The notes under the pieces are model-generated. The model did not search any database. It had not been told where the DNA came from and saw only the letters and a list, made by a program, of their open reading frames with translations. A program made the position numbers and the translations under genes. This document shows, one piece after another, positions 4,448-51,154 of a stretch of 64,000 nucleotides of DNA. Origin of the DNA: a phage; the sequence record NC_135729.1; one strand, written 5' to 3'. How positions within the stretch are numbered: position 1 is the first letter of the stretch; every line of letters starts with the position of its first letter.

Positions 4448-4866
4448 TATTCATTGCCCTCTTCTACAACACTGATCCCGAAGTTTACGTTGGTAATTTC
4501 ACCAGTTTCTTCATCAACATTACCTGTTGCCTGAATGCTTAGGCCACCAACAATGCCAGCCTTCTTAGCTTCCCATAGTTCAGGATTATTGTATTTAACT
4601 TTAGCAACCCAAGAGCCAGCCTTGATGACCTGCTCAGTGCCAATTACTACAACATCAAACTCTTCTTGAATCCACGTCTTTTCAATGGTGAAAGCATCTG
4701 TAGAGGTCAAGTGGAAAAGGTTCTCAGAAACTAGGCCTGCGGCGTATGCTGCGTCCCAGTTATCTTTGGCCTTTTTGATGGTGTCTTTACTCATCCACTC
4801 ACCGTGAGCATCTTTAGTGTCAGGTTCGTAGATGATTTCGTAGGAAATCATTTCTTCCTGTGGCAT
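4447..4866 (-). CDS. head morphogenesis protein (possible prohead protease)
   Basis: ORF between portal and scaffold; start moved to internal ATG at 4866 with GGGGA Shine-Dalgarno because the track start overlaps the portal gene. Confidence 0.3.
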   Translation of the reverse strand: MPQEEMISYEIIYEPDTKDAHGEWMSKDTIKKAKDNWDAAYAAGLVSENLFHLTSTDAFTIEKTWIQEEFDVVVIGTEQVIKAGSWVAKVKYNNPELWEAKKAGIVGGLSIQATGNVDEETGEITNVNFGISVVEEGNE

Positions 4867-4933
4867 CTTATTCCCCATGTGGATTATTTTATCACGCCAA
4901 AGGAGGTTTTGCAACCCCCTGTGTTGATAATTT

Positions 4934-8140: not shown

Positions 8141-8427
8141 TAACCTCTCTCCTTTGGAAACAGTGTTCTAATATAGTCTTGCAAAATGATCAATTTAGCT
8201 CTATCATTGCTACAAGACAGATTATTATCCCTCATAATGCCAGAGTTCACTGCATCTGGCGCACCTTTCTTCAAAGGCATAGCTTTAGCAGGTGGTTTCA
8301 TGGCACCTTCTGGGGGTTTAACAATCAACCTTCCTACATCTGGAGGGTCAATCTTGTATTCTTTCTCAACACTGGTTGCACACCCACATAATAACAAGCA
8401 CGCAATAAACAGTGTGGCAACTCTCAT
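8140..8427 (-). CDS. o-spanin (Rz1-like outer-membrane lipoprotein)
   Basis: Signal peptide with lipobox-like LLLCGCAT, Pro-rich mature part, 95 aa; overlaps upstream partner by 4 nt. Confidence 0.6.
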   Translation of the reverse strand: MRVATLFIACLLLCGCATSVEKEYKIDPPDVGRLIVKPPEGAMKPPAKAMPLKKGAPDAVNSGIMRDNNLSCSNDRAKLIILQDYIRTLFPKERG

Positions 8428-8822
8428 CGATCCTCCTGATTGATACTCTCATTATAAATATCTATAAGCTGATCAGGAAGTGTTGACTTCTTACCTTCAG
8501 GTGATTGGAGGTAGATAATCTGCTTTTCTCTACCTGCCCTCTCAGCTATATTTAATTTATCCTGCAAATCAGAAAGAGATTTTTCAAGGTTTTTAACCTC
8601 CTCTGCGTGGCCCATTTTAATTTTGTCGGCCTGCTTTTGTTGCTGATCAAGGATCCGTTCCCACTTTAACTCTGTTGCTGACACACCCTCTTGGTAGGCA
8701 TCATTAAGCTTAGAGTTAAACCAATACACGGCCCCAAGATAAGCTGCACCTATAGCCGCTGCAAAAACTAAACCTTTTATGATCCCTCTATACCTACTCA
8801 GCCATGTTAAACCTGAAATCAT
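8424..8822 (-). CDS. i-spanin (Rz-like)
   Basis: N-terminal transmembrane segment then coiled-coil periplasmic domain; 132 aa; coupled to lipoprotein gene. Confidence 0.6.
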   Translation of the reverse strand: MISGLTWLSRYRGIIKGLVFAAAIGAAYLGAVYWFNSKLNDAYQEGVSATELKWERILDQQQKQADKIKMGHAEEVKNLEKSLSDLQDKLNIAERAGREKQIIYLQSPEGKKSTLPDQLIDIYNESINQEDR

Positions 8823-37314: not shown

Positions 37315-38103
37315 ATGGGTCGAGCTAAAGAAACAAAACGCATGCGTGATGAAGCTAGAGAGGCTCGCAAATCTGATCGCCTGCGTAAGGCTGCTGAGAA
37401 ATTTGCTGACGAAAGAGAGCACACCGCTCCAGCTCTCCGACCAATGAATAAGAAGCAGCAAAAGTATCTTGATTATCTAGGGTCACGTAAGATTATTATT
37501 GTAAACGGTGTGTTTGGATCCGGTAAGACATTCATGGCATCTGCATATGCAGGTGATCTTCTGCGTAAGAACGAGATTGATAAGATTATTGTTGCACGTC
37601 CTTACGTTCAGACAGGAAAGACTTCAGGATTTAAACCTGGAAATGCAATGCAGAAACTGTGGCCCTATCTTCGAAGCATGATGGACACGATTTGTCGTCG
37701 TGTTGGCAAAGGTGCTTTTGCCGCAATGCTGGGAGACGGTCAGAACAGCCGTATCGAGATTTGTGAAGTTGAAAGCATTCGTGGTCGTAGTTTCGATGAG
37801 CGATGCTTTGTCCTGATTGACGAGGCACAGCAAACTAACCCTGAAGAAATGTTGTCAATTATCACAAGGATCTCTGATCAAGCCACCCTTGTAATTATGG
37901 GTGATAATAGCCAACGTGACATCCCTGGTAAATCTGGCCTTGCATGGGTGACGGATTTCTTTACTCGTCATCCAGATCCTGAGGTTGGAATGATCAGCTT
38001 TGATAGTCCAGACGATGTCGTTCGTTCTGGGTTGGGTCGTCAGATCGCACTCAATCTTATTGAGGATCGTGCAAATCATATTTGGACCCCTGTTTCCGAG
38101 TAA
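37315..38103 (+). CDS. phoH: PhoH-like ATPase
   Basis: Walker A GVFGSGKT, Walker B-like VLIDEAQ; 262 aa. Confidence 0.75.
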   Translation: MGRAKETKRMRDEAREARKSDRLRKAAEKFADEREHTAPALRPMNKKQQKYLDYLGSRKIIIVNGVFGSGKTFMASAYAGDLLRKNEIDKIIVARPYVQTGKTSGFKPGNAMQKLWPYLRSMMDTICRRVGKGAFAAMLGDGQNSRIEICEVESIRGRSFDERCFVLIDEAQQTNPEEMLSIITRISDQATLVIMGDNSQRDIPGKSGLAWVTDFFTRHPDPEVGMISFDSPDDVVRSGLGRQIALNLIEDRANHIWTPVSE

Positions 38104-38147
38104 TACAGAAGGGTGGTTATTCCACCCTTAAATATCTAAAACAGTTG

Positions 38148-38176
38148 TTGACAAATAGGTAAGCTTTAGATATTAT
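38148..38176 (+). promoter_or_regulatory. sigma70-like promoter
   Basis: GTTGTTGACAAA - 17 nt - TATTAT. Confidence 0.6.
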
Positions 38177-38204
38177 TATCGGACAAAACAGAGAGAAGGA
38201 CAGT

Positions 38205-38516
38205 ATGGCTACAATACAAGAGAAACTGAATAAAATATACTGCCTGTTTGTCTATAACGGCGAGACAATTTTGGCAAATAAGGGATCCAAGAATGTGTGG
38301 ACCAAGGACAGCGGTGGTAATATAATTAACTTAGCGTTGCTACGTGAGCGCCGACACAGATTCTTTATCGAGTCTCGAATTATTGAAAGCAGCACTTGCT
38401 ACAGAACAGGCGATAAAGTAATTGTTGACAATGATACGTGGTATGTGGTAGACTGGCAATCATTGAGCTGTGATGCTTCTGACAATCGTAAGTATTCCAT
38501 AGTGATTGCTAAATAA
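38205..38516 (+). CDS. hypothetical protein
   Basis: 103-aa ORF with GAGAGAAGGA Shine-Dalgarno. Confidence 0.4.
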   Translation: MATIQEKLNKIYCLFVYNGETILANKGSKNVWTKDSGGNIINLALLRERRHRFFIESRIIESSTCYRTGDKVIVDNDTWYVVDWQSLSCDASDNRKYSIVIAK

Positions 38517-38576
38517 AGGTAAATGTGAATCAGGTTTAAATAAATAGCTTTCAACTTCCAATATTAAGGATTTCTC

Positions 38577-39626
38577 ATGAATTTAACACCTCGCAGCACC
38601 ATGGTACACGGCATGAAAGAAAAACAGAACGGTTTCGAACCTATGAGTAATAAAATGTTTGGTATGCCGGGTGGTATTATGGAAACATACAGCTACCCAA
38701 CACCTGTTGTTGACCACGTTCTTTATATCGACGATTTGGAAGACTTACAAGATCATATGTCTCGTCTGCAGACGATCCGTATGGCTCAGCCGGAAGAAAG
38801 CATTCGGGTGATCATCAATAGCCCTGGGGGTTGCGTGCACATTGCAATGGCCTATCTGCAGGCATTCCGCGAGTCTCAGGCAAGCGTTGTTGCACATGCT
38901 GAAGGGATGTGCTGCTCTGCTGGAACAATCTTATGGCTTGGTTGTAAAGAACGTACTGTGGCTCCGGACACAGAGTTTATGTTCCACTACTATCAAGGTG
39001 GCACTTATGGTAACGGTGTGAACATGAATACTCAGGTCAGCTACTGGAAAAAACGTTTTGAACGCCTGATCGAAAAATACTACGGTGGGGTGCTAACAGA
39101 AGATGAGATCGCATCCATCACAGCTGGTGGCGAAGTGTGGTTGGACGGAGAAGAGCTGGCAGCACGCACTGGAGCTATTATTCTGGATGAAGGCAACATA
39201 CAACGCATCCAGAACGGACAAAAACCGAAAAAGCTTCTGGCAAAAGGTGATGAAGAAGGCGTGTTAGGTGAAGCAGGTCTTCCGGAGATTCACCAGTGCA
39301 CATCTTTAGATGAGTTAGTTCATGCTGTTGAATCTGCAAAAGCGGGTGGTTCGAAAGGTGATGTTCACACTGTGCTCCTGAATCTGCAGATGGAGAGTGG
39401 CGAGACCGTCAGAATTGCCCTGGGTGAGATTACTTCAGAAGATCTGCAGAGATTCTCTGTCGTTGAACTTCAGGATATTCTGTCTCAATTGAAGACTACT
39501 CTGAACGGCGGTGAAGAGGTTAAGGTGAAAGATAAGACGCGCAAGCGTCTGGTGGACAATATTATTAAAACAGCAAAAGAGCTCAATGAAAAAATCCTGG
39601 GTGCAGGAATTGTCGAAGAAGCTTAA
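38577..39626 (+). CDS. ClpP-like serine protease with C-terminal extension
   Basis: IINSPGG hallmark, Ser-containing GMCCSAGT, His-containing FMFHYYQG; 349 aa. Confidence 0.5.
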   Translation: MNLTPRSTMVHGMKEKQNGFEPMSNKMFGMPGGIMETYSYPTPVVDHVLYIDDLEDLQDHMSRLQTIRMAQPEESIRVIINSPGGCVHIAMAYLQAFRESQASVVAHAEGMCCSAGTILWLGCKERTVAPDTEFMFHYYQGGTYGNGVNMNTQVSYWKKRFERLIEKYYGGVLTEDEIASITAGGEVWLDGEELAARTGAIILDEGNIQRIQNGQKPKKLLAKGDEEGVLGEAGLPEIHQCTSLDELVHAVESAKAGGSKGDVHTVLLNLQMESGETVRIALGEITSEDLQRFSVVELQDILSQLKTTLNGGEEVKVKDKTRKRLVDNIIKTAKELNEKILGAGIVEEA

Positions 39627-39637
39627 ACATTAATTCT

Positions 39638-39662
39638 AAAGCCCTCTTCGGAGGGCTTTTAC
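39638..39662 (+). terminator. rho-independent terminator
   Basis: AAAGCCCTC-ttcg-GAGGGCTTT followed by T. Confidence 0.6.
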
Positions 39663-39677
39663 GATCTGGAGATTTGC

Positions 39678-40211
39678 ATGACTTGTGCTAGAAAACCTGA
39701 TGAACAACGTAACGCCTACGATGAGTATGTGACACCGGAGTGGTGTGCAGAAGGGCTGTATGACCTTATTCCGTTCCCAGAAGACTGGACCTACTTAGAG
39801 CCTTGCAGGAATAGTGCCTCAGGTGTGTTCTACTCCCGTATGCCGTTAGGATCTGCATGGGGAGAAATACAAGAAGGTGTTGACTATCTGAATACAGAAT
39901 ACAACCATGTTGACTGTATTATCACCAACCCACCATACAGCCTGGCTCGTGAGTTTGTAGACAAGGCGTTGAAAGATGCTGACGTAGTTATTATGCTTTT
40001 GCGTCTTAATTTTCTGGAAAGCAAAGCCAGATTTGAATGGTGGCTTGATAATGCACCTACTACTGTGATCACAATATCTAAGCGTCCATCATTTCAATCA
40101 AACGGCAGAACTGACGGGCAAGCATATGCATATTTTGTGTGGGATAAGAAAAACCGTTTAGACTTGCCGCCGTTTATGTGGTTGGCACCCCCAGAGGTAG
40201 ACCTGAAATGA
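39678..40211 (+). CDS. small N6-adenine DNA methyltransferase (phage Dam-like)
   Basis: ITNPPY motif IV; 177 aa. Confidence 0.55.
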   Translation: MTCARKPDEQRNAYDEYVTPEWCAEGLYDLIPFPEDWTYLEPCRNSASGVFYSRMPLGSAWGEIQEGVDYLNTEYNHVDCIITNPPYSLAREFVDKALKDADVVIMLLRLNFLESKARFEWWLDNAPTTVITISKRPSFQSNGRTDGQAYAYFVWDKKNRLDLPPFMWLAPPEVDLK

Positions 40212-40492
40212 AAATGAGTGCTAAGGACAAATTACACCAGCTGGCGCTAAAACGCCCTGTAACGCTCCCTGACGAGCTTAACTCCATTTATGATGCGATT
40301 GTAGGGGAGATACAAAATAAAGCGTTAGCAGGCTTTCTGGGGTGCGGATTTTCGATAAATCTACCCTCGCATTTCTCAGATTACTTCCCGCACATTGTTG
40401 GAGATTTAAGGGCAGGAGGTCTGCAGGTAGATGTTGTTGGCATCTCCCCAGAGAAAAATAATACGGTTGCCTACTTGACAGTAACCTGGTAG
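40208..40492 (+). CDS. hypothetical protein
   Basis: ATGA overlap with upstream gene; start at internal ATG of track ORF. Confidence 0.4.
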   Translation: MKMSAKDKLHQLALKRPVTLPDELNSIYDAIVGEIQNKALAGFLGCGFSINLPSHFSDYFPHIVGDLRAGGLQVDVVGISPEKNNTVAYLTVTW

Positions 40493-40528
40493 TTGTGTAT
40501 TGTTGTTTTCAACAAGAGGGGGTCATTT

Positions 40529-40768
40529 ATGTACAAGTCATTTTCAATCTACTCAAGACAGGCGAAACACTACACAGAGATCCTGATCACTCAGAAAAAA
40601 TCTGTAGAAGGTGAGTGGGAATATCACCATAAAATGTTGCGTCCAGACTGGGTTTTTGATAGACTTATTGCTATGATCCCTCTCGGAGAAGTATACCCTC
40701 TGACAGCCCATCGCGATGCTTGGGATTTAATTGATTACATAGATTCATTTAAGGAGCCTAGATTATGA
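40529..40768 (+). CDS. hypothetical protein
   Basis: ATG after GAGGGGG. Confidence 0.4.
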   Translation: MYKSFSIYSRQAKHYTEILITQKKSVEGEWEYHHKMLRPDWVFDRLIAMIPLGEVYPLTAHRDAWDLIDYIDSFKEPRL

Positions 40769-41163
40769 AGATTGAGATTACTAAAGAAGGTAAGAAAGTG
40801 TCCGGCAACTATGCAACAGTAATTCGGGATTTAATGTTTGAAGCCACCAAGATCGGTACATCTAAAGTTGGTCAAACTGTTAGTGTGAAAAGTAATATCT
40901 CCACAGGAGAGAAGGTATTCATTGTGGTCAAAGGGCAGGATCCCGTGGAAGGAACAGTGGGCCGAGGTGGCTACCTGTGCATTTCTGAAGAGCCGCGTAT
41001 GTTAGTGGCTGACGCTACTATGGGTGGGAAACGTGTGTGCGAGGCGGATGAGGTAATGATTATCCAACCTGTTGATCCAGATGACCCAGCAACTTGGGTG
41101 GTAGGAAATGAAATCTTCTCTTTAGAAGAGTTATCCTTCCCAGCACCGCGCTCTGTTCAGTAA
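40765..41163 (+). CDS. hypothetical protein
   Basis: 132-aa ORF; ATGA overlap. Confidence 0.4.
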   Translation: MKIEITKEGKKVSGNYATVIRDLMFEATKIGTSKVGQTVSVKSNISTGEKVFIVVKGQDPVEGTVGRGGYLCISEEPRMLVADATMGGKRVCEADEVMIIQPVDPDDPATWVVGNEIFSLEELSFPAPRSVQ

Positions 41164-41200
41164 TAATTTATCTTACCAGGGACGGTAGGTAGGAGGTAGC

Positions 41201-41434
41201 ATGAAAGTTAAATTTCTTACAGATTTAGGGTACCCTTCCTTGGTTGACTGTGTTGGTAAAATTGTGGAAGCAAAACGGCTATCTGCAAACGAGAATGTTG
41301 TCCTGGTTAAAGGGAAGGATTTACTAGCTGCAGGTGCAGAGTCTGGCAGGATCTCTCCTGATTATATGTATTACCTATCTTTAAGTAATCTGCCAGAGCG
41401 AGGCGGTAAAGGCCTTGAAGTTGTGGAGGAGTGA
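41201..41434 (+). CDS. small acidic protein, MKVK paralogue family
   Basis: MKVKFL N-terminus, VKGKDLLAAGA, C-terminal LEVVEE; GGAGG Shine-Dalgarno. Confidence 0.45.
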   Translation: MKVKFLTDLGYPSLVDCVGKIVEAKRLSANENVVLVKGKDLLAAGAESGRISPDYMYYLSLSNLPERGGKGLEVVEE

Positions 41435-41964
41435 CAGGTATGCTTCTGATTAACTGGGAAGACCTCTATGGGGACAAAGACCCTGTTGCGTTTGTTGATC
41501 GTAGGTGGAGATACACTGAAGAACAACTGGCGGCAAAAAATTTAACTGCAAAACGCAGAAAGATCATCCAGTGCAAGTACAAATACGCACAGTTTGCTGC
41601 AAAAGTGTCTCCACAAATCGAGAGCTTTGTGCTTAAATTGTATGACGAGTACCTCAAATTCAAATTGGATTTTGTGCAGGTGTACCGTGCACAGGTACGA
41701 CCAGATACCAACATATGTAGATGGAAGGTTGTTTGTGAAGGTAAAGATTTGCCGCTCAGCTTGACAATTGAGTGGCGTTATGGGTATCATGAGTGTGGTC
41801 TGTATGATATTTGGGATGTCATTGTAGATCCTGCTAAGCATCTGAACACAGAGGAGCTGGAATATATCAATAAGGTTATTCTCGATATGTTTTTCAGCTA
41901 CACACATGAAAACTCTGAGAAAGAACGGGATAATTTTCTTGACACCCTCAGCGACCATTTGTAG
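41431..41964 (+). CDS. hypothetical protein
   Basis: 177-aa ORF. Confidence 0.4.
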   Translation: MTGMLLINWEDLYGDKDPVAFVDRRWRYTEEQLAAKNLTAKRRKIIQCKYKYAQFAAKVSPQIESFVLKLYDEYLKFKLDFVQVYRAQVRPDTNICRWKVVCEGKDLPLSLTIEWRYGYHECGLYDIWDVIVDPAKHLNTEELEYINKVILDMFFSYTHENSEKERDNFLDTLSDHL

Positions 41965-41994
41965 TATACAATTTAACCTACAAAGGGAGGACCA

Positions 41995-42222
41995 ATGAGT
42001 ATAAATGTTGTGCTAATAGGTTACCTGGTAATGTCCGTTATAACAGCGGTATTCTTGACAGGTGTATGCATCGTGTCCAGACGAAGGGTGAAGTTTGATG
42101 ATTTTATCACCATCATCACTGCTGCACCTTTTTGGCCTGTTGTTATCTTCATCGTAATAATGTGCCTAGTTGATTACTACAAGAATATCAGGAAGGAGAG
42201 TAGGGATGGAGACCGCACCTAA
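41995..42222 (+). CDS. small membrane protein with two predicted TM helices
   Basis: Two hydrophobic stretches, charged C-terminus; GGAGGA Shine-Dalgarno. Confidence 0.4.
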   Translation: MSINVVLIGYLVMSVITAVFLTGVCIVSRRRVKFDDFITIITAAPFWPVVIFIVIMCLVDYYKNIRKESRDGDRT

Positions 42223-42358
42223 AACTATCTATACTGTTCTTAAAGAGATTGCGTTCTACGCAGATCTTAGCCAGGCACCTTTATGGGAAAAGAGCATGTA
42301 TTTAAAATGGTGCGTTAATTTAGGGAGACCTTCCAGTGTTTCAAGCCATGTTTATTGA
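42206..42358 (+). CDS. hypothetical protein
   Basis: Internal ATG with AGGAAGGAG Shine-Dalgarno. Confidence 0.35.
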   Translation: METAPKTIYTVLKEIAFYADLSQAPLWEKSMYLKWCVNLGRPSSVSSHVY

Positions 42359-42441
42359 GATGCTATCTGGGATATTGTTACTGGTAGCCATCTTAGGTGG
42401 TGCAGTTCTGATGTATAACTATCTTGAAAAAGGAGACAGCA

Positions 42442-42627
42442 ATGGTAAAAAATAAATCTTTAGAGCAGGCTGAAAACCTTCTCCACGAGCTGGTAAAGGA
42501 GTGGAAAGTTGAATACTCAGATTTTAATGCACGAGAGGGTGAAGATTATTGGCCTACGGAGCGCTCAGAGGGCGAATGGTATCAAGATTTTATAGAGTGG
42601 TTATATCAGACGTGCGATGAGGGGTGA
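42442..42627 (+). CDS. hypothetical protein
   Basis: ATG with AAGGAGA Shine-Dalgarno. Confidence 0.4.
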   Translation: MVKNKSLEQAENLLHELVKEWKVEYSDFNAREGEDYWPTERSEGEWYQDFIEWLYQTCDEG

Positions 42628-42629
42628 CG

Positions 42630-43094
42630 ATGTTTGTTAAATATGTAAAAACGTGCCTCAACAGTCTTGGCAGAGAGCATTGGTACACCTTGCTTGAAAA
42701 AGGGGAAATTTTAACAAAATCTGGAAAGATAACTTTGATACCTCTTGATAGTAAAGGTAAAGACCCGTCACGACTTGTTATAGATGATTACGTTACAGGT
42801 GTGACGTTCGAGGTCTCTGTGGATAGGTTAATACGCAGAGCTGGCGGCCCTTATGACCGAAGAGAGTATGTTTTCGATTCCGTTACAGAGATGGGGGAGC
42901 CTCCGTCTTTAATGTTCAGGATGGTAATCAGAGATATGAGGTCATCTATAGATAGGATCGTAAAGGACATTAAGGAACCTTTTAGAGTAAAAGTTAAGAA
43001 GTTTTTCGATTCTAAGATTAACATACTCGCCGTTGCACTAGGTGTAGTTCAACTTCTGTTAATTTTGCACTATTTTGAACTACTATTTAAGTAG
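42630..43094 (+). CDS. hypothetical protein
   Basis: ATG after GAGGGG. Confidence 0.4.
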   Translation: MFVKYVKTCLNSLGREHWYTLLEKGEILTKSGKITLIPLDSKGKDPSRLVIDDYVTGVTFEVSVDRLIRRAGGPYDRREYVFDSVTEMGEPPSLMFRMVIRDMRSSIDRIVKDIKEPFRVKVKKFFDSKINILAVALGVVQLLLILHYFELLFK

Positions 43095-43156
43095 TAGTTG
43101 AGATATGGCACAAAGGATGTGCCATAGTGAAATAAACTAAGAAAGAGGTAGAGAGA

Positions 43157-43504
43157 ATGCCAAAGATTAAAACGTTATTACTGTGGGTAGCTGTTTTAGC
43201 TTTTATAGGGTACTGGACTTGGGAAACTGAATTAAAAGATATCGGATATACCAGTCTTGAGAGCAAGGCGTGCATTGGCATAACCGATGCGTTCAGGCAA
43301 AATGCTATGGATCACGAATGTGTTGATGCAGATATAGATGAGAAACTGTCTAAGGACAAAGATTTTTACCATGGGCATGCTTTACTTGATAGTGGTGACA
43401 CTGTAGAGTTCTGGTCGTGGTTTCGTGAAGATGGAACAATAAAAACAGCAGTAAAGATCTCTAACAAAGAGTTAATGCTGTTGCAGCAAAAGGAGGCTCA
43501 ATGA
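43157..43504 (+). CDS. hypothetical protein with N-terminal signal anchor
   Basis: Hydrophobic N-terminus; leader hairpin ATGGCACA..TGTGCCAT at 43105-43127. Confidence 0.4.
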   Translation: MPKIKTLLLWVAVLAFIGYWTWETELKDIGYTSLESKACIGITDAFRQNAMDHECVDADIDEKLSKDKDFYHGHALLDSGDTVEFWSWFREDGTIKTAVKISNKELMLLQQKEAQ

Positions 43505-43788
43505 TCTGGATATCCTATGCTGATGGCACCATGCTGTATACTGCAGGTACCAGATATGAAGTTCAGGAGAACGATAAAAAATTTATCGTAAAAACATTTG
43601 ACAAGGACGACAACCTTTTGCTAGAATTGACTTACAAAGTTGGAGAGGTATCCAATATCCAGTTGGATTGTGGTCATAAAGATAATCCACTCAAAAAACC
43701 TGGAGTAGGTAAGGCTTCAGAAGAACGTCTGTCTCGTATTGCAGAAAGCGTTTCTCCCCAAAAATCTAAGAAGAGGACTAGAAAATGA
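43501..43788 (+). CDS. hypothetical protein
   Basis: 95-aa ORF; ATGA overlap. Confidence 0.4.
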   Translation: MIWISYADGTMLYTAGTRYEVQENDKKFIVKTFDKDDNLLLELTYKVGEVSNIQLDCGHKDNPLKKPGVGKASEERLSRIAESVSPQKSKKRTRK

Positions 43789-43979
43789 AAAACTTACGTT
43801 TTAACACTTATTACTACAACACATTGAATGATTTGTATTATATTGTTCGAAGTAAAAGTCCTGAAACAGTCCTATTCTGCCGCGAACCTTTCAAAGGGGA
43901 GGAAGTAGAGTCTGAGATGAATGTTAGCCAGATCACCTCTTTGTTGCTCTCAGGCGCAATGGAAGAAGCAATATTCTAA
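43785..43979 (+). CDS. hypothetical protein
   Basis: 64-aa ORF; ATGA overlap. Confidence 0.35.
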   Translation: MKNLRFNTYYYNTLNDLYYIVRSKSPETVLFCREPFKGEEVESEMNVSQITSLLLSGAMEEAIF

Positions 43980-43997
43980 ACCAGGCAGGAGGGTTTT

Positions 43998-44186
43998 ATG
44001 AAGCACTATTGCCTGTCTGGTAGAATGGGTGCAGATTGTGATTGGGTTTTCTTAAAACTTGTCAGCATTCGAGAGTTCATCCCAGAGGAAGAGCAAGAAA
44101 GCGAGCTGATGTCATGGATCAACCATTACGGTAACACTTTTCGGCATGTTAAGGTAGAAGAGTTGCCAAGCGAGGCTGAATTATGA
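43998..44186 (+). CDS. hypothetical protein
   Basis: 62-aa ORF with AGGAGG Shine-Dalgarno. Confidence 0.4.
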   Translation: MKHYCLSGRMGADCDWVFLKLVSIREFIPEEEQESELMSWINHYGNTFRHVKVEELPSEAEL

Positions 44187-44479
44187 AACTTTTTGAGTGG
44201 TTTAAAAAGTTTAAATATAAAGCTGTAGCCATCGTGCCGTGGTCCATTCAGTGGGTTGATGAAGGTGGTCTACCGATACCTGGTGACAAAGATACTGGGT
44301 ACTGGATTATGATGGAGAACGGGTTTGGAAAGCGAAAGTATACGTGCACAAACTCTACTCGATCTGCACTTAATAGAGTGCCTGGTTACAAACTTATGGT
44401 TGTGTGGAAAATGTCAGGCGTGCCTCCAGCCAATGCTCAATTTCTTACTGACAATCCGACCACGGTAGAGGGAGATTGA
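44183..44479 (+). CDS. hypothetical protein
   Basis: 98-aa ORF; ATGA overlap. Confidence 0.4.
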   Translation: MKLFEWFKKFKYKAVAIVPWSIQWVDEGGLPIPGDKDTGYWIMMENGFGKRKYTCTNSTRSALNRVPGYKLMVVWKMSGVPPANAQFLTDNPTTVEGD

Positions 44480-44481
44480 TA

Positions 44482-44763
44482 ATGAAAAAGATTAACAGTA
44501 GTGAAGTAGAGTTTAAACTTGTCGGAAAAGGCACTTACTGGGAAGTTCGTCAAAAGGTATATTTGTTCGGTCTTATTCCCTACTGGTCTAAATTCTACTG
44601 GGGAGCTAACGAGTTGGGAAGATACGCCACCAAATCAATGGCACTTATTGGTATAGCAGAGTACATTGCAGCCCGAGACAGGGTTGGAACCACTTATTAC
44701 TACACTGCTGACGATATTCGTAACAGTGTTTACGTCCCACAACCACCTGATGGAGACCGTTGA
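44482..44763 (+). CDS. hypothetical protein
   Basis: ATG after GGAGA. Confidence 0.4.
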   Translation: MKKINSSEVEFKLVGKGTYWEVRQKVYLFGLIPYWSKFYWGANELGRYATKSMALIGIAEYIAARDRVGTTYYYTADDIRNSVYVPQPPDGDR

Positions 44764-44987
44764 TGAAAGTTAAAGTTTTAGATTCAAGCTTCTATATTGG
44801 TCAGGAGCCTTTAGTAGGAAAAGTGTTTACTGCTGTCCCTAACGAAGATTACCCTGACCTTTTAAAAATAAAAGGAGCAGATCTTATTGCCGCTGGTGCA
44901 TCTCAGGAATGCTTTGACAGTCAGTGGACCTATAACTTTGCCCTAGGTGAGGATGTAGAGGTAGTGGAGGACGATCATGAAGGTTAA
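44763..44987 (+). CDS. small acidic protein, MKVK paralogue family
   Basis: MKVKVLD, KIKGADLIAAGA, C-terminal VEVVEDD. Confidence 0.45.
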   Translation: MKVKVLDSSFYIGQEPLVGKVFTAVPNEDYPDLLKIKGADLIAAGASQECFDSQWTYNFALGEDVEVVEDDHEG

Positions 44988-45231
44988 AATTCTTGATTCT
45001 AACGTCTACTTGGGACAATCCTTCCTGAATGGAAAGGTCGTTCCTGCGGTATACTTTGAAGGGTTGCCGTGGGATGATCCTGTGCGGCAACATCACAGTT
45101 ATGTAGGCCACAACGTGGTGTTTATCTTGGGATCAGACCTGATCACCGCTGGTGCACCTGAATATTATTTCGGGGAAGAGTCCTACTATGCCTTTGGGGT
45201 AGGGTCAGATGCAGATATTGTAGAGCTGTGA
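44977..45231 (+). CDS. small acidic protein, MKVK paralogue family
   Basis: MKVKILD, ILGSDLITAGA, C-terminal DIVEL. Confidence 0.45.
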   Translation: MKVKILDSNVYLGQSFLNGKVVPAVYFEGLPWDDPVRQHHSYVGHNVVFILGSDLITAGAPEYYFGEESYYAFGVGSDADIVEL

Positions 45232-45243
45232 TGGGTAACCGTT

Positions 45244-45642
45244 GTGAAAAATAAACTGTTCAAAGTTACAATGAAAATTCGCGGAGCTTGGAGCGTAAAG
45301 CAAGGGCGTATCCCAGAATTTGAGAAAGACTTCTACGTAGTCTCCACCTCGGAGGAGGCTGCATGCTGGCAGGCTGGCTATGCCTATGCAAGAACCTGGT
45401 ACGAAGGATACCAGACTGGGGGCTATGACGGAGAAATTGTCAGCAAGGGTGTAGAAGAAATTAATGTGTTGACAAGTGAAAAAGTTTTTGTTATAGTGCA
45501 TCCAGATTCCAGAGTGAAGCATTACTGGAATGCCAGAACAAAAACTTGGACACCGTTTGCAGATTCTGCTACTCCACTTTTAAACCAGAAAGCTCTTGAC
45601 TCTGCCCCAAGTTATGGGGTTGTTGAAGAAAAGCTAAACTGA
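45244..45642 (+). CDS. hypothetical protein (paralogue of 47457-47852)
   Basis: HPDSRVKHYWNARTKTWTP segment echoed by HPHSNIAYYWDVLNNEWTP in 47457-47852. Confidence 0.45.
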   Translation: MKNKLFKVTMKIRGAWSVKQGRIPEFEKDFYVVSTSEEAACWQAGYAYARTWYEGYQTGGYDGEIVSKGVEEINVLTSEKVFVIVHPDSRVKHYWNARTKTWTPFADSATPLLNQKALDSAPSYGVVEEKLN

Positions 45643-45659
45643 AACAGTGAGGTGTCACC

Positions 45660-45950
45660 ATGATGGATTTAATTCTAAATATTGATAACGCAGGAGAGTT
45701 TAAAGACGATGGTGTAACAAGCATGGACAAACCCTGCTCTGCTAAGGTTGACTCAAAATGGACCTATAAGTTTGATGGAGAGATCTTCGCAAATGATGAG
45801 AAGGTTGTAGATGCTGCAGCCATTTTGAACGCTCTAGGTTACGACCCTGTGAATTCTTTGATCAAGGATCCTGTTGAGTTTGCGGAGTATGTTCGAAAAA
45901 TGGCAGATCTTGCTGTAGATATTTTAAAAACTATCGACAACAAGCTATAA
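45660..45950 (+). CDS. hypothetical acidic protein
   Basis: 96-aa ORF. Confidence 0.4.
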   Translation: MMDLILNIDNAGEFKDDGVTSMDKPCSAKVDSKWTYKFDGEIFANDEKVVDAAAILNALGYDPVNSLIKDPVEFAEYVRKMADLAVDILKTIDNKL

Positions 45951-45955
45951 AACTG

Positions 45956-45984
45956 TTGACACAATGCTTCAGCTATAGTATTAT
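45956..45984 (+). promoter_or_regulatory. sigma70-like promoter with 5' leader stem-loop
   Basis: TTGACA - 17 nt - TATTAT, then hairpin AAAGAGAGA..TCTCTCTT at 45991-46018. Confidence 0.55.
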
Positions 45985-46036
45985 TGTTTTCAAAGAGAGA
46001 TGGTTGTTACTCTCTCTTCCTTAAAAGGAGCACGTT

Positions 46037-46354
46037 ATGCAAATTGAAATCACTGGCAACGTAGAAATCACTGAAGGTATGGTGTCTTTCATTTCCCACA
46101 AAATGTCTAAGCTGGAGCGTTTGCACCCATCTGCCAACTATGCACGTGTGAGTGTAAAAGTTGAAAATGATCACCAGGAAGTCATGGCGTTCATTTTTGA
46201 CACTTCCGGAAAAGAAGTTATTGCCAAAGCTAAAGGTAGTGACGCTTACGAGGCAACTGACCGTATGGTAGATGTTGCAGCACGTCAGCTGGCTAAATGC
46301 GGTGGAAAGAAAGGTAAGGGGAAAGGCAAAGTAAAGATTGACTTTGGAGAATGA
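46037..46354 (+). CDS. hpf: ribosome hibernation promoting factor homologue (HPF/RaiA family)
   Basis: MQIEITGNVEITEGM...KLERL...VKVEN...AKGSDAYEATDRMVDVAARQL colinear with recalled E. coli HPF; Lys/Gly-rich tail. Confidence 0.6.
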   Translation: MQIEITGNVEITEGMVSFISHKMSKLERLHPSANYARVSVKVENDHQEVMAFIFDTSGKEVIAKAKGSDAYEATDRMVDVAARQLAKCGGKKGKGKGKVKIDFGE

Positions 46355-46491
46355 GGTGCTACAATGGGCGTGATTAAGAAATTAGTCCCAAATGTAGAGA
46401 TTGCATGCTTTGAAATTATGTTTGCAATCGCAGTTGTAGTTAATGTGTTAGGTTACGGCTATTAATATCAAATAATTGAGGAGACCTCTAA

Positions 46492-46761
46492 ATGAAAATT
46501 AAATTATTCAAAACTGAGCTGGCAGACAAAAACTGTGGACTGGTTGAAGGCATGATCGTTGAAGCACAACCAGTGGACTACATGAAGGTAGTTCGTGATG
46601 CACTGGGTGAAGGCTTTGATCTGATGGAGCCAGCTCTGCGAGAAGATGTTATCGAGATGGCTAAAAAGCACACACCTGAAGGCTTGGTGGTGTTTGTTGC
46701 ACCGGGTAACGGAGAAGAGTTGATTGTAACTCCTGATGTGTATGAGATTGTAGAAGAGTAA
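46492..46761 (+). CDS. small acidic protein (MKIK subfamily)
   Basis: MKIKLF, IVEAQP, C-terminal YEIVEE. Confidence 0.45.
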   Translation: MKIKLFKTELADKNCGLVEGMIVEAQPVDYMKVVRDALGEGFDLMEPALREDVIEMAKKHTPEGLVVFVAPGNGEELIVTPDVYEIVEE

Positions 46762-46856
46762 TCCTGCTTGGATTAGCATACTTCTCTCAATAAAAAGAAA
46801 AGTTTGTAATTATTTGTGGGAAAGGAATCCCCATCTCTTGCCAGAGGTGATACTAT

Positions 46857-47120
46857 ATGATTGTTTATTTTAAAACTTCAGGTGGATACCCTGATTCTCA
46901 AAGCTTGATCGGAAAAACGTGCACAGCATACTCACCTTTTGATGAGGAGGTAAGCGATATCCTACGAGATATGTATCGGATTGATCCCCAAGAAGCTTTT
47001 GATCAAAACCTTGTATTTGTCAAGGGCTCAGACATGAAGTCTTTGGGAGCATTCCCTGAAGCAGATGATGATGCTGTTTATTCGTTCATGACTCCTTTTG
47101 AAGCTATGGTTGTTGGGTGA
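46857..47120 (+). CDS. small acidic protein, MKVK paralogue family
   Basis: FVKGSDMKSLGA; 87 aa. Confidence 0.4.
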   Translation: MIVYFKTSGGYPDSQSLIGKTCTAYSPFDEEVSDILRDMYRIDPQEAFDQNLVFVKGSDMKSLGAFPEADDDAVYSFMTPFEAMVVG

Positions 47121-47124
47121 GAAT

Positions 47125-47457
47125 ATGAAAGTACGATTTATTGGTGAAACAATTCCTGTGCATCTCCGGTCGCCTGAAGATTCTGCAGATCTTGCATCTC
47201 AGAAGGCGAGAGGTTATGATAAGAAAGTAATCTCAACCGATGTAGAGCTTGAGGCTACCAGTCTACCTGACCCTGCTGCATTCTTTAATCATTATGGGTA
47301 CTATTTCAGCAATCTGATGAATATAGGGGAGCTTGTGTTTATTAGTGGTGGAGAAATTGTTAGCAAGCTTGGCGGCGATCCGGATGTCTTTCATGAAACC
47401 TGTCCTTTTGCATTTGTGGTTGGTTCAGATGTGGAAGTTATTGAGGAGGTGCGGTAA
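47125..47457 (+). CDS. small acidic protein, MKVK paralogue family
   Basis: MKVRFIGE, C-terminal VGSDVEVIEE; ATG after GGGTGA. Confidence 0.45.
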   Translation: MKVRFIGETIPVHLRSPEDSADLASQKARGYDKKVISTDVELEATSLPDPAAFFNHYGYYFSNLMNIGELVFISGGEIVSKLGGDPDVFHETCPFAFVVGSDVEVIEEVR

Positions 47458-47852
47458 TGGTAAGCCTATACCGTGTTGAGTATAGCTCAGATACTGTGTA
47501 CAACGTAAGAAGTAAAGATCGCAGCGACAGAGTGCAAGAAATGTATGTTCTTGCCGACAGTCCGTTATCTGCAGCGTTCAAGGCAGGGGCTCTTGCATCT
47601 CGTTGGAAATTTGAAGGCGGATCTTTCTATGAAGAAACCCTTGAAGATTCTGTTGTTATTTCTTCTGTAGAGGTTTCAGATGACTACGAAGGGAAAAAGT
47701 TCGTAATGCGGCACCCACACAGCAACATTGCGTACTACTGGGATGTTCTGAACAACGAGTGGACCCCAGATCTTCAGAAGGCTACTGTGCTAACACCGTT
47801 TTTGGCAGATAAGTTCCCACCAGAAGGTAATTTATCCGCATTGTTTCAGTGA
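47457..47852 (+). CDS. hypothetical protein (paralogue of 45244-45642)
   Basis: Shared HPxS..YYW....WTP segment. Confidence 0.45.
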   Translation: MVSLYRVEYSSDTVYNVRSKDRSDRVQEMYVLADSPLSAAFKAGALASRWKFEGGSFYEETLEDSVVISSVEVSDDYEGKKFVMRHPHSNIAYYWDVLNNEWTPDLQKATVLTPFLADKFPPEGNLSALFQ

Positions 47853-47932
47853 TTTTCTTGCACACAGGTATTGACAACGCCAACCCTGTGTGCAATAATA
47901 CACCCATCTTAACAAAACAGGAGATTTTAATA

Positions 47933-48181
47933 ATGAAAATTAAACTTAAGAATATTGATGAGGCCGCTTTAGAAGGTATCGATTTCGATTTCCCATTTAA
48001 AAACGGGGATATCATTGAAGCACAAATTCCTACCCGAGAAATGGTAAATAGTTTTGCAGAAGATGGTGCGGCAACAATGATTATGCTAATTATGGACGGC
48101 ACTCTCTTCATTGGGGAAGAGGACGATCCAATCATGATTCCTGGTCATTTTTATGAATTAGTTGACGAAGAGGTGCTGTAA
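47933..48181 (+). CDS. small acidic protein (MKIK subfamily)
   Basis: MKIKLKNID, IIEAQIP, C-terminal YELVDEE; ATG after ACAGGAGA. Confidence 0.45.
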   Translation: MKIKLKNIDEAALEGIDFDFPFKNGDIIEAQIPTREMVNSFAEDGAATMIMLIMDGTLFIGEEDDPIMIPGHFYELVDEEVL

Positions 48182-48532
48182 ATGAAAGTAGAAATTACCG
48201 GTTTTGATGTGAATGTGGTTCCGGAAGATATTTTAGCTAAACTTCCGGAAGGTTTTGGTAACGGCGTTGTGGTGGATGCTGTTCCTCCTACCAAAGACAT
48301 TCTGCTGCAGTATGGTGTAGCAGAGGAAGATGTCGATAAAGTTCTTACAATGATGGCAATCGATCGTGTTGTCGTTGTTAAGGGTCTCGATAATTTTGAG
48401 AGTGATCCCCTGATTATTCGTGGAGATGACTACAAAATCATCGATAATGAAGGCCAAGAGTTCTATGAACCTTGTGCAGAAGATATTCTTAACTTATTAC
48501 TGGAAGCAGGCACCGAAGAGGAGGACGAATAA
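48182..48532 (+). CDS. small acidic protein
   Basis: 116-aa ORF; acidic C-terminus. Confidence 0.4.
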   Translation: MKVEITGFDVNVVPEDILAKLPEGFGNGVVVDAVPPTKDILLQYGVAEEDVDKVLTMMAIDRVVVVKGLDNFESDPLIIRGDDYKIIDNEGQEFYEPCAEDILNLLLEAGTEEEDE

Positions 48533-48861
48533 TGAAGATTGACCCGTTACTGAAGGCTCGTGCAGAAAAAGCGTACACCATTAAGCTGACCAACCTGGTT
48601 CCTACTTGTCATCCGGATGTAGGTTGGCCCGAAGGTTTGGTGGAGGGAACTGTAACAGCTGCATACCTTCCTAACATCAAATACCTTATGGAAATCTTAG
48701 AGATGGATGAGGAAACTGCAGAACAGTTCCAGTTGGATATGAAACAGAGTGGAACTCTGGTTATTCACGGGTGGTATAATACTAAAGATGCAGAAGACCC
48801 TCTGGTAACTTCTAATCTGGCATATGAAATCTTAGGGCCTTTGAACCTGGAGGAAGACTAA
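48532..48861 (+). CDS. small acidic protein
   Basis: 109-aa ORF; ATGA overlap. Confidence 0.4.
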   Translation: MKIDPLLKARAEKAYTIKLTNLVPTCHPDVGWPEGLVEGTVTAAYLPNIKYLMEILEMDEETAEQFQLDMKQSGTLVIHGWYNTKDAEDPLVTSNLAYEILGPLNLEED

Positions 48862-49148
48862 TGAAAGATCTGGTTAAGATTAAGATTAAAGATACCAATG
48901 GGGAGCTCAGCCATTTTGGAATTAATGATGGTGACGAGCTGATCGCACACCTGCCTACCAAGGAGGTTGTAAGCAAAGCAGTTGCCGGAGAAGAAGCTGC
49001 AATGCAGGCTGCAGGTGTGGATGAAAACTATGTAGCTATGTGCATGTGCCGAGATCAGGTTGTTCTGTATAAAGCGTATCGACCAAACGGAGCCACGGAG
49101 TGGCTTGTATTCCGACCCGAAGGATATGAAATCTTAGAGGCAATATGA
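48861..49148 (+). CDS. small acidic protein (MKIK subfamily-like)
   Basis: C-terminal YEILEAI. Confidence 0.4.
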   Translation: MKDLVKIKIKDTNGELSHFGINDGDELIAHLPTKEVVSKAVAGEEAAMQAAGVDENYVAMCMCRDQVVLYKAYRPNGATEWLVFRPEGYEILEAI

Positions 49149-49237
49149 TAAATATTGCCAAGGTTGCAACGGCACTGTTAATTATTTGCTGGTCAGTAAC
49201 CTTAACACTGTGTCTTGTATTTCAGTGAGGTGCTTGT

Positions 49238-49501
49238 ATGAACATCCTGATGTGGGTTATAGCAGTGGCGTTTGTTGCATGTTTTTGCTGCTGGGTTGCG
49301 GTGAGGATTTCTGTAGCTACCCTTCGGAAGTTGGGGTTCTCAGAATGGGATATTAATATCCTTTCTTTTCGCAATGAGACAATATCAGCCGCCCTGCTTT
49401 GTAAGAAATTCAAGTGGGAACCTTGTGAGGTCATGAACTATCTAAGAACGGGAGATATCCCTGAAAGATTTAAAAAAGTTCTTGACGGTAAGGATAAATG
49501 A
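49238..49501 (+). CDS. small membrane protein
   Basis: N-terminal TM helix MNILMWVIAVAFVACFCCWVAV. Confidence 0.4.
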   Translation: MNILMWVIAVAFVACFCCWVAVRISVATLRKLGFSEWDINILSFRNETISAALLCKKFKWEPCEVMNYLRTGDIPERFKKVLDGKDK

Positions 49502-49529
49502 TAGTATAGTGACTAACAAGAGGTGAGGA

Positions 49530-49670
49530 ATGACCGATTTTACTGAAGCTTTAATGATGGCCTTGTCTGTTTTAGCGCTATCGGTGTGTTTTGGGGCGTT
49601 ATTCACATCTCTGGTTAAAGTTTTACATACAGTATTATTACCCAAGGAGCGCAGTAATGACGAAGATTGA
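49530..49670 (+). CDS. small membrane peptide (46 aa)
   Basis: GAGGTGAGG before ATG; single TM helix; below ORF-track size cutoff. Confidence 0.3.
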   Translation: MTDFTEALMMALSVLALSVCFGALFTSLVKVLHTVLLPKERSNDED

Positions 49671-49908
49671 CTTGAATGCTGGCGACCATGTTGTTGTCAA
49701 ATGCATCGGAGATTATCTTGGATTCACAATCGGCAATACTTACGAGGCGGTAGTGGCGAAGGTTTATCATGATAAAGTCCTCAGTCTTGTATTTGACTGT
49801 GATGATGACGGAGATGACCGTTACGTCTGTGAGGTGCTGGCTCGTGACGATAGTGAAGACCAGAAATTCCTGGTTATTGAACTGAACGGTATTTTTGTAG
49901 AACGTTAA
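49657..49908 (+). CDS. hypothetical acidic protein
   Basis: ATG with AAGGAG Shine-Dalgarno inside the track ORF. Confidence 0.4.
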   Translation: MTKIDLNAGDHVVVKCIGDYLGFTIGNTYEAVVAKVYHDKVLSLVFDCDDDGDDRYVCEVLARDDSEDQKFLVIELNGIFVER

Positions 49909-49936
49909 TTTAAAACAACATAAGGAGACTCTTACT

Positions 49937-50242
49937 ATGGCTAAATCTAAAGTTGAACTGTTCACCTCTCTTCCTTCTGACACTGCAGAGCGTGATCGCC
50001 TTCGCAAAACAATCGAAGAACTGGTGGAACTCCAACTTCAGATTAAAGATCTGAAAGATGCCATTAAGGATATCATTCTCGTTGAGAAGCAGGATCACCT
50101 GTATTCTCCTAAATTCATCAAATCTCTGGTTGCTACCGAGTTTGATATTCGCTATGAGGCTGAAAAGCGTCGAGCTAAAATCGAAGAAGAGGTTGAGCAC
50201 ATGTCCGAGGCAGACATTCTGTTCAAACGCTCTGTAGAATAA
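49937..50242 (+). CDS. hypothetical coiled-coil protein
   Basis: 101-aa ORF with AAGGAGA Shine-Dalgarno; followed by terminator. Confidence 0.45.
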   Translation: MAKSKVELFTSLPSDTAERDRLRKTIEELVELQLQIKDLKDAIKDIILVEKQDHLYSPKFIKSLVATEFDIRYEAEKRRAKIEEEVEHMSEADILFKRSVE

Positions 50243-50248
50243 TGACAA

Positions 50249-50276
50249 AGAGGGGGGGCTTGGGCCCCTCTTTTTA
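50249..50276 (+). terminator. rho-independent terminator
   Basis: AGAGGGGGG-cttg-GGCCCCTCT followed by TTTTT. Confidence 0.6.
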
Positions 50277-50298
50277 CTATCTATGGAGGAGATTTGAG

Positions 50299-50631
50299 AT
50301 GGGTATACCGATCACTGTAAAAGAATTGAATGAACGTGATGCAGGTGGTCTATGGCCTGCACGAAAAATACGCTGCATCCGTATGAAAGAGAACCTTGAG
50401 CATCTTGAGCAACAGAAACGGATTGAGGTTGGCGATATTTTCGAAGTATTTTATTCTGATCGCCGTAACTGGGAAACCATTCAACCTTCCGGTTTTGTTC
50501 TTGCTAAGCTTGACACTGGAGAAGCGATTGTTCCTGGGTTGGATATTGTCTTCGAAATTATACAGGAGTGGGATCCGGACAAGATTAGATACGAAGAGCT
50601 ATTCGGTGAAGGTATTATCAAACCTGTGTGA
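50299..50631 (+). CDS. hypothetical protein
   Basis: ATG after GGAGGAG. Confidence 0.4.
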   Translation: MGIPITVKELNERDAGGLWPARKIRCIRMKENLEHLEQQKRIEVGDIFEVFYSDRRNWETIQPSGFVLAKLDTGEAIVPGLDIVFEIIQEWDPDKIRYEELFGEGIIKPV

Positions 50632-50639
50632 GGTGGATT

Positions 50640-50939
50640 ATGTCTACAAAGGCGGCTAAATACTCCTATATGCCATCAACCTCTGCAGAGGTAGACTTTA
50701 GTTTCGATGTGTTTCCACTGTTTGAGGTGGTTCTGGCATACCCAACAATACTATCTACTCCTGAATCACTTGTGCCTGTTAAGTTGCAGAACGCTATGCA
50801 TTCCATGCACTACAACAACAAATGTAGGCACAGATGGTGTCAGGACGAGGAAAAAGATTTGGATAGTTTGAGAGATTTTGACAGTCACCTTTTGACACCT
50901 TTCAGCTACTCCAACCTTGATAAGCCCTCGTGGGTATAG
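50640..50939 (+). CDS. hypothetical protein
   Basis: ATG after GAGGTGG. Confidence 0.4.
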   Translation: MSTKAAKYSYMPSTSAEVDFSFDVFPLFEVVLAYPTILSTPESLVPVKLQNAMHSMHYNNKCRHRWCQDEEKDLDSLRDFDSHLLTPFSYSNLDKPSWV

Positions 50940-50963
50940 CAAAATATCAAATTTAAGACACCT

Positions 50964-50990
50964 AGGACGCTCTGTGGCGTCCTTTTCTTT
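50964..50990 (+). terminator. rho-independent terminator
   Basis: AGGACGC-tctgtg-GCGTCCT followed by TTTCTTT. Confidence 0.55.
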
Positions 50991-51154
50991 ATCTGGTGCA
51001 CGATTGCATACCTTGGGTAGTTAATCTCATTACAGAGCGTTTAAGAGCTCCCTACAAACAACTCCATATTTCGAGCGTAGCGAGAACGCACGTCCGTTTT
51101 GACCCAAATCACCATACGCTCGGATTTTAACCAAACCCTCGCGGCGTTTCTGTT

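Follow-up and report, generated by a model that had tools for sequence, protein, structure and literature searches.

An array of small paralogous genes from three protein families in an rV5-like Escherichia coli phage

The 64,000-nt stretch of phage DNA analysed here (record NC_135729.1, hereafter the window) carries, between positions 41201 and 49148, an array of twelve small genes that sequence comparison sorts into three real paralogous families, termed A (five members), B (five members) and C (two members). We lean towards reading the locus as an old conserved array that was duplicated before the sampled members of the genus diverged and whose proteins would serve as protein-binding modules during host takeover, with the recurring gene order A-A-C acting as a unit. 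The window itself is assigned to an rV5-like E. coli phage of the genus Vequintavirus; many Vequintavirus (rV5-like) E. coli phage genomes match the 8.4-kb stretch that holds the array at 98% identity, and at least 80% of the stretch is covered in 114 of the 121 matching records. All genes treated here lie on the plus strand, and the open reading frames (ORFs) listed in an earlier note on this DNA were all found, on that strand, at the positions used below. Genes for ribonucleotide reductase and for PhoH-like, ClpP-like and methyltransferase proteins precede the array, which lies in a region that the rV5 paper includes in a transcription unit spanning genes 82-163 (PMC3606486).

Phages of the rV5 type, which are candidates for use in therapy and biocontrol, count among the E. 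coli phages most often isolated, yet ~8 kb of the genome at this locus is annotated merely as 'hypothetical protein'. Twelve such genes now collapse into three families; the genes are conserved, under selection and placed behind host-type promoters, and one family gains a confidently predicted fold.

Membership and arrangement of the three families

Family relationships were evaluated by all-against-all BLASTP/phmmer comparison of 34 genes in 38.5-50.6 kb of the window and by profile searches across all 465 window ORFs of at least 40 amino acids (aa); genes are named here by their start positions. Within family A, the 74-aa protein of 44763 (44763..44987, rv5_gp135, first gene of block 1) and the 84-aa protein of 44977 (44977..45231, rv5_gp136, second gene of block 1) are linked by BLASTP at E 1.6e-14, and the 77-aa protein of the isolated gene 41201 (41201..41434, the rv5_gp122 orthologue) is linked to 44763 at 7e-7 and scores 1e-21 against the family hidden Markov model. 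PHROG 5009 groups these three independently, with E values of 8e-36 for 41201, 2e-38 for 44763 and 4e-32 for 44977. The two block 2 members, the 87-aa 46857 (46857..47120, rv5_gp142, first gene) and the 110-aa 47125 (47125..47457, rv5_gp143, second gene), were joined to family A through profile searches in the window, in which a profile of the three core members recovers 46857 at 1.6e-6 and 47125 at 5e-5, with the next ORF at E ~2. Pairwise links run from 47125 to 44763 (4e-4) and to 44977 (8e-4), and from 41201 to 46857 (2e-3). The 46857 protein, which has its own PHROG 13920, also matches PHROG 5009 weakly (1e-4), and 47125 has no PHROG 5009 match and its own PHROG 13661. The earlier note had drawn these five together as a family with an MKVK start, a shared KG.DL segment and an acidic tail; that membership stands in the BLASTP/phmmer, profile and PHROG 5009 comparisons, but the motifs are looser than it had written them, as 46857 starts with MIVYFK and ends with AMVVG, and 47125 carries ISGGEIVSKLGG where KG.DLIAAGA would be expected.

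Family B is anchored by 47933 (47933..48181, 82 aa, an uncommon allele of its slot) and 48182 (48182..48532, 116 aa, rv5_gp146), which match each other by BLASTP at E 2e-5. A profile of these two retrieves 48532 (48532..48861, 109 aa, rv5_gp147) at 1.2e-4 and 48861 (48861..49148, 95 aa) at 9e-3, the latter also matching 47933 by BLASTP at E 0.013; the four-member profile then reaches 46492 (46492..46761, 89 aa, rv5_gp141), the weakest family link, at 6e-3, with collinear motifs in the alignments and noise beginning at E ~1. A second set comprising 46492, 47933 and 48861 had been proposed before, and the profiles uphold it and add 48182, by charge computation the most acidic member (net charge -21), and 48532. 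In the rV5 record NC_011041.1 (positions 8326-8596 of the record stretch), two short ORFs, gp148 and gp149, take the place of an intact 48861 orthologue, owing either to a frameshift or to a sequencing error.

The two family C proteins, from 45244 (45244..45642, 132 aa, rv5_gp137, third gene of block 1) and 47457 (47457..47852, 131 aa, rv5_gp144, third gene of block 2), align over 119 aa with 28% identity (E 3e-8 in BLASTP, 3e-11 in phmmer), and both match PHROG 7379 end to end (E 8e-74 and 2e-66, respectively), bearing out the paralogy that had been proposed for them. Taken as a whole, the earlier observation holds and, as the array has ten barrel-type and two C genes, even falls somewhat short of what is present.

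An MK(V/I)K start and an EE tail are common in small phage genes, and the tail overlaps the ribosome-binding site of the following gene, so that the shared short motifs could be put down to chance resemblance among unrelated or non-coding ORFs. We rejected this explanation, whose probability we regard as next to negligible and which was already refuted for families A and C. The families persist under alignment statistics, with profile E values far from noise; PHROG clustering is independent of our searches; a full-library profile search yields a coherent family; a confident structure model was obtained; and the ratio of nonsynonymous to synonymous substitution rates (dN/dS) is well below 1.

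Existing annotation treats these genes as hypothetical proteins, and they have been grouped in PHROGs, where every array gene has an end-to-end match: PHROGs 5009, 13920 and 13661 for family A, 11868, 12359, 12155, 12457 and 12794 for family B, and 7379 for family C, all labelled 'unknown function'. PHROG 5009 and PHROG 7379 each already hold more than one paralogue from the locus, but A is divided into three clusters and B into five, and neither the full 5 + 5 + 2 paralogy nor the repeated A-A-C order is captured. These families are not described in the literature searched, which concerned rV5 paralogues, accessory or counter-defence genes and the transcriptomics of Vequintavirus.

Along the locus the gene order reads.A..........AAC.HBAACBBBB, with H at the HPF-like gene described below. 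Among 1e6 shuffles of this order, 0.04% (P ~4e-4) place each of the two C genes behind an A-A pair and 0.8% contain four B genes in a row. The A-A-C order, which occurs twice, is thus non-random (P about 4e-4), and block-level duplication or functional linkage is its likely source.

Genes within the runs are tightly coupled in translation and abut or overlap, with gaps of -11 to +12 nt (44977 overlaps the preceding 44763 by 11 nt, and the start of 47457 overlaps the stop of 47125 by 1 nt), and a Shine-Dalgarno-like GAGG/GGAGG precedes each array ORF. At five junctions (44960-44990, 47435-47460, 48165-48185, 48510-48535 and 48840-48865) the Glu-rich C-terminal codons of one gene double as the Shine-Dalgarno sequence of the next, as in the tails ...VVEDD of 44763 (GTGGAGGAC) before the ATG at 44977, ...VIEEVR of 47125 (GAGGAGG) before the ATG at 47457, ...EEEDE of 48182 before 48532 and ...LEED of 48532 before 48861. 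The tail codons are partly a dual-coding constraint, and the shared tail is therefore weaker evidence of common ancestry than it appears; the last barrel strand, E.EV(I/V)E, is nonetheless conserved in distant A relatives. The earlier description of the proteins as acidic applies to most of them, as the isoelectric point (pI) lies at 4.0-4.8 in ten of the twelve, the exceptions being 41201 (5.4) and 45244 (7.8).

Two near-consensus sigma-70 promoters were found by scanning, and both sit in the two largest relevant gaps. The first, TTGACA-17-TATTAT (45956..45984, P144 in the rV5 record), lies between the blocks ahead of the HPF-like gene, and the second, TTGACA-17-TG-AATAAT (47871..47899, with P150 at the same site in the rV5 record), lies ahead of the four-gene B run.

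Age, selection and distribution of the array

Protein identity between paralogues is 25-40%, and their DNA similarity is limited to remnants of 18-30 nt, such as the stretch coding G(A/S)DLI(A/T)AGA; such short remnants between the blocks exclude a recent duplication. All twelve genes are present in two divergent members of the genus, Aya and AlexBoehm, every array gene covered by the fetched stretch of a divergent IMG/VR contig is present there, and rV5 itself carries all five A members (gp122, gp135, gp136, gp142 and gp143). Nei-Gojobori dN/dS values between the window and divergent relatives are 0.02-0.17 for the family members, in the same range as the neighbouring ClpP-like (0.04) and HPF-like (0.03) genes, and therefore indicate purifying selection and not the signature of an arms race. 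The earlier note had called the locus a rapid lineage-specific expansion. Its lineage specificity is retained, with four to five family A places per rV5-like genome and families B and C seen in rV5-like phages only. We rejected a recent or rapid origin: on the divergence of the paralogues, their lack of DNA similarity, the retention of copies in divergent members and the low dN/dS, the expansion is judged to be lineage-specific but old and stabilised.

The 47933 slot is an exception in that it holds alleles that are only ~50% identical. The 82-aa protein of the window is ~50% identical to the 86-aa rv5_gp145 found in rV5, Murica, AlexBoehm, Aya and others; the genes flanking it are 93-100% identical, and the synonymous divergence (dS) of 47933 is saturated. 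This pattern suggests an old allele that was exchanged by recombination.

Divergent alleles of this kind would also be expected of a counter-defence array engaged in an arms race, in which decoys or DNA mimics each neutralise a different host immunity protein and diversify fast under host-interaction selection. We consider this account unlikely. It would accommodate the acidity of most members, the accessory and lineage-specific character of the genes and the occurrence of natural deletion and in-frame fusion variants, but the orthologues are under strong purifying selection, every covered copy is retained in divergent members, the paralogues are old, and the embedded ribosome-binding sites partly explain the acidic tails. 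Ocr, ArdA, Arn and T7 Gp5.9 are acidic DNA-mimic proteins, and the array proteins have small size and net negative charge in common with them. Acidity of this sort is found in ten of the twelve members; a fold or charge pattern imitating B-form DNA is not. The earlier note had raised a DNA-mimic or decoy fold as a possibility, and the structure prediction that was run lends it no support, as family A is modelled as an SH3-like beta-barrel. Moreover, Vequintavirinae are described in the BASEL study as exceptionally sensitive to restriction-modification systems (PMC8594841), which argues against an effective anti-restriction mimic.

Searches with tblastn using the A consensus find four to five places per rV5-like genome, compared with one in nearly all other phages matched; the single copies lie among small accessory genes, as in the nin region of lambdoid mEp013, and other phages with such a copy include Vibrio phage VPMCC14, Citrobacter phage Merlin, Salmonella phage KM16, Proteus phage ZX7 and Iodobacter phage PhiPLPE. 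Families B and C were seen in 118 rV5-like records only, and a related-locus search for C returned rV5-like contigs only. In Seunavirus PVP-SE1 and Mydovirus AV124, the syntenic region that follows the ClpP-like gene contains no A, B or C gene. Word-indexed homologue searches with A, B and C yielded close rV5-like orthologues only, and distant A relatives were reached by exhaustive profile search alone. Against 1.84 billion cluster representatives, the exhaustive A profile search gave 52 matches at E <1e-3, nearly all of 65-85 aa, with the consensus MKVKLLNDGGY.G...V.GKVV.A...(V.I.G).(D/E)LI.AGA...F....Y.F..G.E.EV(I/V)EE. Three of the 52 representatives (P0015, P0024 and P0053) contain two or three repeats in one polypeptide, and several others have C-terminal extensions, one of which is a DUF3310 domain. 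An unrelated 52-kb metagenomic phage contig carries two tandem A genes, at 4998-5219 and 5219-5425, and tandem amplification therefore recurs in family A. In that contig the pair is flanked, within 4761-5668, by two paralogous-looking 76-aa ORFs (MDIKAYRGW... and MEIKMYRGV...).

Predicted folds and proposed role

An AlphaFold2 model of the 44763 protein, with a predicted local distance difference test score (pLDDT) of 93.8 and a predicted TM-score (pTM) of 0.81, has five strands and a short helix after strand 3. On this model, family A is confidently predicted to be a stand-alone SH3-like five-stranded beta-barrel of ~70 residues, whose five antiparallel strands are superposable on SH3, KOW or PsaE domains. 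Its conserved elements are a GY.G loop and a helix with the G.DLI.AGA motif, and inserts can be accommodated between strands 2 and 3; 41201 is a short form without the insert, 44977 and 46857 carry one, and 47125 has the longest. Sequence identity to SH3-like barrels (PsaE, Spt5 KOW, eukaryotic SH3 and the retroviral integrase C-terminal domain) is 4-25%, with no sequence relationship, and family A differs from them in the helix after strand 3 and in being stand-alone and acidic. An SH3-like fold is by itself uninformative on function. A useful lead is the confidently modelled fold for a Pfam-less phage family: no window member matches Pfam, its SH3, KOW and Tudor models included. Likewise, a Pfam scan of 42 family members gave nothing beyond noise (E >=0.03), NCBIfam scans of the members gave nothing, PADLOC gave no match for ten members at E up to 0.1, and no credible match came from searching PDB sequences with a family A profile.

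The AlphaFold2 model of a family B protein (47933, pLDDT 82.4) shows a small alpha+beta protein that shares its strand order with A and runs through strands 1-2, two helices and strands 3-5. Its helical segment is placed at the position of the inserts in 44977, 46857 and 47125, three of the five A proteins of the window. In BFVD, the structural neighbours of A are uncharacterised small phage proteins with TM-scores of 0.7-0.87, and the match lists of A and B overlap in weak matches only. Proteins with the A fold come from small accessory-region genes of Shigella phage CM1, Cronobacter phage CS01, Citrobacter phage Merlin, Shigella phage pSf-1 and Escherichia phage RB49, and an 86-aa protein of Vibrio phage Vc1 has the B fold (TM-score 0.74). 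The second-best match to the A model is an 87-aa CM1 protein (TM-score 0.80), which, by its length and host phage, is taken to be the 46857 orthologue. Most other phages have one copy, compared with five A and five B genes in Vequintavirus.

The BASEL phage EduardKellenberger (MZ501061.1) is a viable isolate that has lost 3.7 kb, corresponding to window ~41836-45557. This deletion brings the last 33 codons of 45244 in frame behind the N-terminal part of 41431, and twelve small genes are missing, the first A-A-C block among them. Block 1 is therefore accessory on E. coli K-12, and EduardKellenberger provides a natural deletion mutant ready for phenotyping.

This deletion also bears on whether the A, B and C proteins could be virion or assembly proteins, or domains of known structural proteins, a reading that the earlier note had named as one that would undo its own and that we rejected as very improbable. 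The virion proteins named in the main text of the rV5 paper are gp52, 53, 60, 61, 64 and ORF133, with no A, B or C member among them (PMC3606486). ORF133, detected in virions, is the orthologue of 42624 and, in that text, the sole product of the wider region reported in rV5 particles, which speaks for a structural role; 42624, however, belongs to none of the three families. Furthermore, the array sits in a DNA-metabolism/accessory transcription unit, far from the morphogenesis genes (PMC3606486), and block 1 can be deleted.

Large lytic phages of the T4-like, T5-like and SPO1-like groups possess arrays of small paralogous early or host-takeover genes. From general knowledge, such arrays resemble the present locus in consisting of tightly packed, translationally coupled small genes behind host-type promoters that are mostly dispensable; to our knowledge, neither sequence nor demonstrated function connects the array to any characterised takeover protein. 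On the reading favoured here, the non-structural arm of the Vequintavirus genome, which carries sigma-70-type promoters, would hold an old array that encodes small cytoplasmic proteins of three families. Tandem duplication before the divergence of the sampled genus members would have built it, and purifying selection would then have kept each copy. Family C would contribute a genus-specific 130-aa protein after each A-A pair, each protein may act as a protein-binding module for a different host or phage partner during takeover, and the A-A-C genes would work as a unit, the proteins being useful in nature and individually dispensable in the laboratory.

Several points weigh against this reading. 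No homologue with known function or a solved structure emerged from the Pfam, NCBIfam, PADLOC and PDB profile searches. Expression timing, which would fall in the non-structural phase, is deduced from the promoters and the gene neighbourhood. The link between A and B is weak, as hhalign aligns them with P 9e-4 and a probability of 23%, confidently over the N-terminal 29 columns (MK(V/I)KL...G.VVEA) only; a common origin of the two, with B maybe a distant offshoot of A, is possible but unproven. Finally, the block 1 A genes 44763 and 44977 are each other's nearest relatives, so a single clean three-gene duplication does not fit the A-family similarities. Of the duplicated three-gene block proposed earlier, the twofold, non-random A-A-C order thus stands and the single duplication event is unsupported; either the A genes were duplicated independently within each block, or they were homogenised by recombination.

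The HPF/RaiA-like ribosome hibernation factor gene between blocks 1 and 2 (46037..46354, 105 aa, PHROG 8990 at E 2e-6, so annotated in many relatives) lies outside the three families and has its own promoter. Its position raises the alternative that the array encodes modulators of the translation or transcription machinery, in which the barrels, similar to KOW, ribosomal-protein or PsaE-type peripheral subunits, would bind to the ribosome or to RNA polymerase in concert with the HPF-like gene. We hold this to be improbable, as the acidic charge makes RNA binding unlikely and as the A relatives in the two other contexts examined, mEp013 and VPMCC14, are not beside an HPF gene; a link of the array to the HPF-like gene and the translation machinery is speculative. 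A more ambitious version of the binding-module reading, which we put forward only tentatively and consider unlikely, is that family A constitutes an undescribed phage-specific SH3-like domain family prone to tandem amplification and that A-A-C and the B run form a multi-component system, each barrel capturing a different host factor, such as an immunity protein or a component of the ribosome or RNA polymerase, and acting beside the embedded HPF gene. If the barrels are host-factor binders, they would offer a compact set of diversified inhibitors to mine; if they are not, the locus is a well-documented old gene duplication in a phage accessory region. In either event the array is well supported and, as a feature of large lytic phages, fairly ordinary.

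Variant forms and neighbouring genes

Hybrid genes occur in other assemblies. In P0006 and P0007 the N-terminus of 44763 is joined in frame to the C-terminus of 44977, and in P0063 45244 is joined in frame to the C-terminus of 45660; these hybrids indicate deletions by recombination between or near paralogues. The protein of gene 45660 (45660-45950, 96 aa), which looks otherwise unrelated, contains DSKWTYKF, compared with FDSQWTYNF in the family A protein 44763, and a 27-nt DNA repeat with 78% identity connects 45660-45950 with 44914-44940. This segment may be the relic of a family A fragment, or the resemblance may be due to chance. Across window 38000-51000, dS to a single relative ranges from 0 to >1 between adjacent genes, and therefore points to fine-scale recombinational mosaicism in the accessory region.

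A hydrophobic 33-codon ORF at 46364-46465 (plus strand), noted by reading the window sequence, lies between the HPF-like gene and 46492; its counterpart by position is an annotated 102-nt gene in relatives (rv5_gp140, Murica and AlexBoehm). Upstream of the array, the ClpP-like protease (38577-39626, plus strand) has a C-terminal extension of ~150 residues that is covered in Seunavirus, Mydovirus and related matches (85-93% of the query) and uncovered in distant homologues (Certrevirus, ICP1 and T4-like Vibrio phages), which match over ~residues 40-235 only. Among the database records, 18 MG0656xx entries labelled 'Campylobacter phage', with Campylobacter jejuni as host, are ~98% identical to E. 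coli rV5-like phages, and their labels are probably wrong or the result of contamination.

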